From Escherichia coli (GTDB taxonomy: Bacteria > Pseudomonadota > Gammaproteobacteria > Enterobacterales > Enterobacteriaceae), in NCBI RefSeq assembly GCF_003334815.1, contig NZ_QOWO01000001.1: DNA of 64,000 bases; one strand, 5' to 3'. Shown piece after piece: positions 11,705 through 11,915 of the stretch. The notes beneath the pieces were generated by a model that did not search any database, was not told the origin of the DNA, and worked only from the letters and a program-made list of their open reading frames with translations. The position numbers and the translations under genes were made by a program. Position 1 is the stretch's first letter, and every line of letters begins with the position of its first letter.

Positions 11705-11915
11705 CTGATGTGGCGAAAACGCCTTATCCGCCTACAAACGCATGAAGATTCAACATGTTGCAATAGATTTTGTAGGCCTGATAAGCGTAGCGCATCAGGC
11801 ATTGAGCACCTAATGCCGGATGCGTCGTGAACGCCTTATCCGGCCTACAAACGCACGAAGATTCAACATGTTGCAATAGATTTTGTAGGCCTGATGAGCG
11901 TAGCGCATCAGGCAA
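11705..11915. repeat. Tandemly duplicated (~112 bp x2) REP-like extragenic palindromic element
   Basis: Near-identical unit cgccttatccg(g)cctacaaacgca-gaagattcaacatgttgcaatagattttgtaggcctgat-agcgtagcgcatcaggca occurs twice; internal inverted repeat cctacaaa/tttgtagg. Confidence 0.7.

Follow-up and report, generated by a model that had tools for sequence, protein, structure and literature searches.

REPs are defined, among other features, by a GTAG/CTAC tetranucleotide at the foot of the stem, and they are combined into mosaic elements (BIMEs) of several types. BIME-1 elements have a y and a z1 REP across a long, well conserved L linker, frequently with an IHF site, and occur as single copies; "atypical BIMEs" mix y, z1 or z2, L or S, and s, l or r motifs, are tandemly reiterated, and vary in copy number among strains (PMC3333891). 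A third type, BIME-2, joins Y and Z2 REPs with a short S linker, and REP325, from which the model of the small RNA naRNA4 is taken, is described as an array of Z2 and Y units (bioRxiv 10.64898/2026.03.23.713779). REPs are also a known target of the insertion sequence IS621 (PMC1525189), and some, such as those of malE-malF, act as mRNA stabilisers.

The 64,000 nucleotides of Escherichia coli DNA analysed here (the window; contig NZ_QOWO01000001.1) carry an element of this kind at positions 11704-11914, where two head-to-tail units with a period of 112-113 bp lie between the convergent genes yghA (10767-11651, plus strand) and exbD (11923-12348, minus strand; TAA stop codon at 11925-11923). The region is 100% identical to K-12 strains, and the element corresponds to MG1655 positions 3150599-3150809 (window coordinate + 3138895), between yghA (b3003) and exbD (b3005). 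RefSeq lists no feature at the element, which is named REP222 in the supplement of bioRxiv 10.64898/2026.03.23.713779 and in PMC10100675; the latter divides it into five REPs (REPt222a-e) and assigns it to exbB, exbD and yghA, whereas four REP hairpins can be delimited here. The REP222 of the EcoCyc/GenBank repeat annotation of MG1655 occupies the same locus without a sequence difference. The element is thus already known, both as a catalogued REP222 cluster and through published work on its RNA-decay behaviour. What is added here is its architecture (a pair of BIME-1-type cores that lack A/B flanks and are connected by a linker resembling the one in a Y/Z2 pair of the window), counts of alleles with no, one or two units, and its use as a recurrent natural landing site of IS621. 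Taken jointly, the identification with REP222 and the architecture, a BIME of two tandem [Y REP - L spacer - inverted Z1 REP] units, are virtually certain. In the neighbouring operon, RefSeq/PGAP names the exbB product (WP_000527844.1) a "tol-pal system-associated acyl-CoA thioesterase", while in MG1655 it is the Ton complex subunit ExbB; the RefSeq/PGAP name looks mis-assigned.

A preliminary description of this DNA, made from the sequence, had proposed a tandem duplication with a few substitutions. A repeat search recovers the duplication as a 72-nt core present twice (11730-11801 and 11843-11914; 97% identity, 113 nt apart), preceded by 27 nt that are less alike (11704-11730 and 11816-11842; 81% identity, 112 nt apart), and MAFFT alignment of the two units gives a mean column identity of 90% with a single 1-nt indel. 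The two copies are present as described, but the substitutions are unevenly spread, and degeneration is evident in the first REP of unit 1. This unevenness, together with the degenerate unit 1 Y, shows that the array did not arise by a straightforward recent duplication of an entire unit. Chance can be excluded as the source of the pattern, since the 36-nt spacer pattern has two matches in the window against 0.00 expected, and the REP 14-mer CTTATCMGGCCTAC has six against 0.04 expected. Tandem Repeats Finder reported no repeat in the region, probably because there are only about 1.9 copies. Open reading frames of 40, 63 and 81 amino acids that run across the repeat were regarded as by-products of its palindromes.

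On the yghA side the units are preceded by a 15-bp non-REP spacer, GTGAATTCACTCTTA (11689-11703), which forms the first part of a 233-bp block absent from some strains. Unit 1 consists of a degenerate Y-type REP (11704-11735, plus strand), whose 5' arm is Z-like (CCTGATG) and which lacks 1 nt ahead of CCTAC; an L-type spacer AAACGCATGAAGATTCAACATGTTGCAATAGATTTT (11736-11771, plus strand), containing the IHF-type core ATTCAAnnnnTTG and the 10-bp palindrome CAACATGTTG; and an inverted short-Z (Z1) REP (11772-11800, minus strand), which is the IS621 insertion site in some strains. A 14-nt tail-to-tail linker, ATTGAGCACCTAAT (11801-11814), joins this Z1 to the Y-type REP of unit 2, GCCGGATGCGTCGTGAACGCCTTATCCGGCCTAC (11815-11848, plus strand), a good Y REP. 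The unit 2 L-type spacer (11849-11884, plus strand) is one base off that of unit 1 (T to C), and the unit 2 inverted Z1 REP (11885-11913, minus strand) has a stem that starts 9 nt past the exbD TAA on the exbBD mRNA. An 8-nt non-REP spacer, AATTCTAC (11914-11921), closes the 233-bp block, and the exbD stop codon comes next.

The REP-like ends noted earlier are borne out as Y-type and short-Z (Z1) REPs with the CTAC/GTAG foot, CCTAC or GTAGG flanking all four. Three of the four are imperfect palindromes of the usual 30-40 nt with hairpin energies of -12.9 to -17.0 kcal/mol: -12.9/-13.2 for the unit 1 Z1, -15.5/-17.0 for the unit 2 Y, and -15.3/-16.0 for the unit 2 Z1. The unit 1 Y hairpin is weak (-8.8 to -9.6 kcal/mol), and it fails a Y-consensus test that allows up to five substitutions. 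An internal inverted repeat around an AT-rich loop of 30 nt had also been proposed; the inverted repeat (CCTACAAA/TTTGTAGG) is present, and the spacer measures 36 nt, with 31% G+C. The element lies outside the yghA and exbD coding sequences and its sequences are multicopy, with a 601-bp query matching at a median of 16 places in an E. coli genome.

For comparison of the spacer with its family, one genome per bacterial species was scanned with the pattern GCCTAC-N(8-16)-ATTCAAnnnnTTGC-N(5-14)-GTAGGCC. At least 120 matches were obtained, among those listed being several Escherichia species, Pseudocitrobacter and Citrobacter, and 119 loci from other genomes were compared. The canonical order in these loci is an upstream motif cagattgctgacaaagtgcgctttgttcat, a Y REP, the spacer, a short Z, and a downstream motif gttttgcgtttgtcatcagtctca, and the canonical L spacer consensus, among the matches listed, is AAAATCGTGCAAATTCAATATATTGCAGAAACCTT. 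Within the same matches the Y REP is present in 108 of 119 loci, as is the same short Z, while the upstream A-like motif is found in 74 (62%) and the downstream B-like motif in 69 (58%). The names A and B follow the BIME literature; the motif sequences come from the present comparison.

Both units of REP222 match the pattern GCCTAC-N-ATTCAAnnnnTTGC-N-GTAGGCC, and so have the Y and inverted Z1 REPs head to head across a long L that distinguish BIME-1 (RIB/RIP; A - Y - L - Z1 - B). The spacer is 1 nt longer than the L consensus and shares the core ATTCAAnnnnTTG with it. At the 25 positions left unconstrained by the pattern it is 52-56% identical to the consensus, compared with a mean of 74% for the L family among the matches listed, in which the 5th percentile is 58% and the lowest value 48%. 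Judged by its sequence, the REP222 spacer is a divergent member of the BIME-1 L family. REP222 departs from BIME-1 in this divergence, in its degenerate unit 1 Y, in the absence of the A-like TGACAAAGTGCGC and B-like GCGTTTGTCATCA flanks from both units, and in being a tandem pair: BIME-1 occurs once per locus, and here two units lie 112-113 bp apart.

With BIME-2 arrays and REP325 the element shares tandem reiteration, a similar tail-to-tail Z-linker-Y junction, a 3'UTR position, and a strain-variable copy number. Its inter-unit linker (minus strand attaggtgctcaat) resembles aatcgtgcacaat at 760-772, the tail-to-tail linker of the Y/Z2 pair at 729-808. It differs in using Z1 rather than Z2 and a long L rather than a short S linker, and in having two units where those arrays have up to about six. 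The REP222 Z is 29 nt long compared with 36 nt for the Z2 at 773-808 and 62958-62995, and its head-to-head REPs are separated by 36 nt, as against about 15 nt at 62945-62959. Because the long-Z pair at 729-805 is the best naRNA4 match and REP325 is built of Z2 and Y, we take the long form to be Z2 and the short form in REP222 to be Z1. A gyrase site, one of the roles suggested in the preliminary description, does not hold up, since gyrase binding is described for BIME-2 and REP222, with its short-type Z and long L head-to-head linker, does not qualify as one; gyrase cleavage and HU binding are described for BIME-2 and REP325, not for REP222. With the order y-L-z1, tail-to-tail linker, y-L-z1, and with alleles of zero, one or two units, REP222 is by the published definitions an "atypical BIME", in which BIME-1 and BIME-2 components are combined.

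A second L within 300 bp is rare in the wider family, being found in only two of 103 comparison loci among the matches listed, and exbD is in none of the fetched comparison loci among these matches. An E. albertii locus (reverse strand 3600-4080 of the sequence fetched) has at least three tandem BIME-1-type units with a period of about 149 bp, and one of Escherichia sp. E1V33 (reverse strand 9960-10290) has two with a period of 175 bp. Enterobacterial BIME-1 elements were also seen on contigs of 260-6000 bp in eight loci (L010, L011, L120-L125) from assemblies labelled Desulfosporosinus, Alkalicoccobacillus, Methylobacterium, a Bacteroides MAG and a Collinsella MAG; these are likely to be contamination with enterobacterial DNA.

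The alleles at this locus were counted in 5426 complete E. coli genomes. The REP222 spacer variant is present in 3766 of these, at most twice per genome and never on plasmids; no genome has more than two copies. The unit-to-unit junction is found in 3673 genomes, the empty site (GGGCATCATT|TTTATTTCGC) in 1575, and a junction of the spacer with IS621, which marks an insertion in unit 1, in 178 (3.3%). From these figures about 68% of the genomes have two units, about 93 (1.7%) have one, and 29% have none, leaving about 85 unassigned. The two-unit count is taken from the junction query, as a count from the spacer alone is too low where a central SNP breaks the 28-nt seed (L007 and L008). The expectation that copy number varies between strains is therefore confirmed, with 0, 1 or 2 units. 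A search for copies elsewhere, which had been recommended, shows that the complete unit with this spacer variant is locus-specific in E. coli (no more than two places per genome), while its components belong to dispersed families; the same REP families recur in the window and, across E. coli, at a median of 16 sites in a genome. Because the Y, Z1 and L components are dispersed, the situation that the preliminary description named as fatal to it, a unit confined to this locus with no REP-like copies elsewhere, does not apply.

When the window is compared with an empty allele (L003), filled and empty alleles differ by the 233-bp block 11689-11921, without a target duplication. The palindrome GTGAATTCAC opens the block and AATTCTAC closes it, and the last exbD codon carries a silent difference, being AAG in the filled and AAA in the empty allele. 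In the one-unit allele the spacer is of the unit 1 type and the Z1 of the unit 2 type, the hybrid make-up expected from recombination between the units that deletes exactly one period. Among the sampled matches of the 601-bp query, flank identity to K-12 is 98.8% or more for filled alleles and 96.2-99.5% for empty ones; as read from the haplotypes, insertion within E. coli is suggested rather than precise loss. The ExbD protein accession is identical in filled, one-unit and empty strains, and since about 29% of genomes are without the element and encode the same ExbD protein, REP222 is not essential.

The insertions of IS621 mark REP222 as a recurrent natural landing site of this IS110-family element. 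In one strain (L004:1768-3066) IS621 lies between GTAG and GCCTG of the unit 1 Z1 REP, equivalent to window position 11775/11776, with an AG core (CT on the other strand) at both sides. In NZ_CP025916.1 the unit junction (3076656-3076716, minus strand) and the spacer-IS621 junction (3088949-3088997, plus strand) are about 12 kb apart on opposite strands, which suggests an IS621-associated inversion that split REP222.

The transcription context was examined next to the element. The only terminator-like site within 11550-12000 is a hairpin at 11655-11685, with a stem of 11-12 bp followed by a U-run on the minus strand, and an energy of -20.5 kcal/mol on the minus and -22.0 kcal/mol on the plus strand. 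It directly follows the yghA stop codon, and its plus-strand U-tract is poor. The supplement of bioRxiv 10.64898/2026.03.23.713779 places a bidirectional terminator for exbB:exbD:yghA at MG1655 3150546-3150582 (window 11651-11687), adjoining REP222. The repeat itself, for which a terminator role had been considered, is thus rejected in that capacity in favour of the separate hairpin. With the only minus-strand terminator beyond the repeat, exbBD transcripts cross all of it and have a 3'UTR of about 270 nt, and this placement of REP222 in the exbBD 3'UTR agrees with the published terminator table. Some read-through from yghA into the repeat is plausible, and yghA mRNA is treated as REP-bearing in PMC10100675. 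Folding of the transcript, suggested earlier as a check, gives -110.8 kcal/mol in the exbBD sense (z = -6.45) and -113.6 kcal/mol in the yghA sense (z = -7.6), both strands folding far better than shuffled controls.

We propose that REP222 is a selfish array of REPs which, once transcribed, forms a barrier to 3'-exonucleases, a reading to which we give a probability of roughly 80%; that the barrier is its main molecular effect is held with less assurance, as probable. By origin it would be a non-autonomous REP-type selfish element, which may have landed as the 233-bp block between the exbD stop codon and the terminator shared by exbBD and yghA in a part of the E. coli population, with copy number changing afterwards through unequal recombination of the two units. 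Transcripts of exbBD run through REP222 and end at the hairpin at 11655-11685, as the published terminator table shows, and the four G+C-rich hairpins, or longer Y:Z1 pairings, would block 3'-to-5' exonucleases. REP-containing decay intermediates would then accumulate, and their removal would need RNase E and the ATP-dependent degradosome.

The role as an mRNA stabiliser put forward in the preliminary description has published support for REP222 itself. Transcripts of exbB, exbD and yghA, all assigned REP222, rise when fluoride depletes ATP, and a probe to the REP region reveals an intermediate of about 300 nt that becomes more stable when fluoride is added, RNase E is inactivated or the degradosome scaffold is lost (PMC10100675). 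Its authors assign this intermediate to yghA; its size also fits the exbBD 3'UTR. The likeness to REPs of the malE-malF type extends to stable hairpins in transcribed intergenic or 3' regions, REP-ended intermediates, and degradosome-dependent removal. REP222 differs from them in being internal to a 3'UTR with a strong intrinsic terminator downstream, so that its REPs are not the 3' end. Genome-wide, no general lengthening of mRNA half-life was seen for genes with terminal REPs (bioRxiv 10.64898/2026.03.23.713779). A large barrier effect is doubtful given this result, the 29% of genomes without the element, and the protection that the terminator already gives to the 3' end in empty strains.

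Several other readings bear on the same observations. REP222 might be a neutral selfish insertion in a permissive spot, with no host function and with incidental RNA effects, as the 29% of empty sites, the ExbD accession shared by filled and empty strains, the decay of one REP, and the interruption by IS621 in 178 genomes would lead one to expect; the two-unit allele is nevertheless well conserved across about 3,500 genomes, and REP-containing transcripts from the locus behave as stabilised intermediates (PMC10100675). We keep this as a tentative alternative, which agrees with all the observations, overlaps with the exonuclease barrier and does not exclude it. An effect on ExbD translation is a somewhat more doubtful proposal: ribosomes stalling at the Z1 hairpin would undergo trans-translation, with less ExbD predicted relative to ExbB. 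The 9 nt between the exbD TAA (11925-11923) and the first paired base at 11913 lie inside the 15-nt rule, according to which translation is lowered by REPs whose distance from a stop codon is no more than 15 nt (Liang et al. 2015, as summarised in PMC12306157), but the terminator hairpin of the empty allele is also only a few nucleotides past the exbD stop, and the alleles may not differ in this respect.

It is unlikely that REP222 acts chiefly on the DNA, as two L spacers at a distance of 113 bp that serve as putative IHF sites and introduce a bend between exbBD and the convergent yghA. BIME-1 L linkers frequently carry an IHF site (PMC3333891), and the core ATTCAAnnnnTTG is in both spacers and, among the matches listed, is common to sampled L members from Escherichia, Pseudocitrobacter and Citrobacter. 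Set against this, the REP222 spacer is at the divergent edge of its family (52-56% identity to the consensus where the mean is 74%), its central AT-rich TATA is replaced by CATG, its upstream A-tract is shorter, and some strains (L007, L008) have a further core change, CAACCTGTTG. A literature search retrieved no IHF binding data for the REP222 site, and the IHF ChIP supplements searched do not mention the locus. It is highly improbable that presence or absence of REP222 is a natural regulatory polymorphism of the TonB energising system; were it so, the hairpin 9 nt past the exbD stop and two phased IHF-type sites would shift the ExbD:ExbB dosage and alter exbBD and yghA mRNA decay, and strains with the empty allele, including several named UPEC, would differ in iron-uptake energetics. 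Hardly credible at all is the prediction that REP222 encodes an naRNA4-like nucleoid-associated small RNA that binds HU and condenses the chromosome. The Rfam naRNA4 model (RF02564) does match 11775-11845 (Z1-linker-Y) on the minus strand with 61.0 bits, narrowly exceeding the gathering score of 59.5 (the plus strand gives 44.9 bits), but it gives higher scores (92.6 and 79.3 bits) to the remaining Y/Z REP pairs of the window and thus recognises generic REP pairs, and a 2026 preprint reports no measurable compaction of the nucleoid by REP325 and naRNA4, which it describes as acting locally, in the manner of a 3'UTR element. That the model picks up all Y/Z REP pairs of the window is why a genuine naRNA4-type sRNA gene was judged unlikely.

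REP222 is a dispensable and ordinary element that matters little beyond good annotation. Its natural alleles do provide a convenient test case for whether a REP array changes the expression of its neighbours.

The other REP pairs in the window are an inverted Y-linker-Z2 pair at 729-808 and a Y-S-Z2-s-Y cluster at 62915-63040, which score 92.6 and 79.3 bits, respectively, with the naRNA4 model, both above threshold. Further Rfam matches above threshold are two tandem SIB RNAs on the minus strand (54520-54669 and 54895-55044), an FMN riboswitch (45675-45823), and an ES173 sRNA (17626-17689). Within REP222, the centres of both spacers (11751-11760 and 11864-11873) form the perfect 10-bp palindrome CAACATGTTG, where the canonical L has CAATATATTG; the two differences are placed symmetrically, and the palindrome is preserved. 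In strains L007 and L008 the unit 2 palindrome is broken (CAACCTGTTG), and family members with a non-TATA centre are palindromic in only two of 52 cases among the matches listed.
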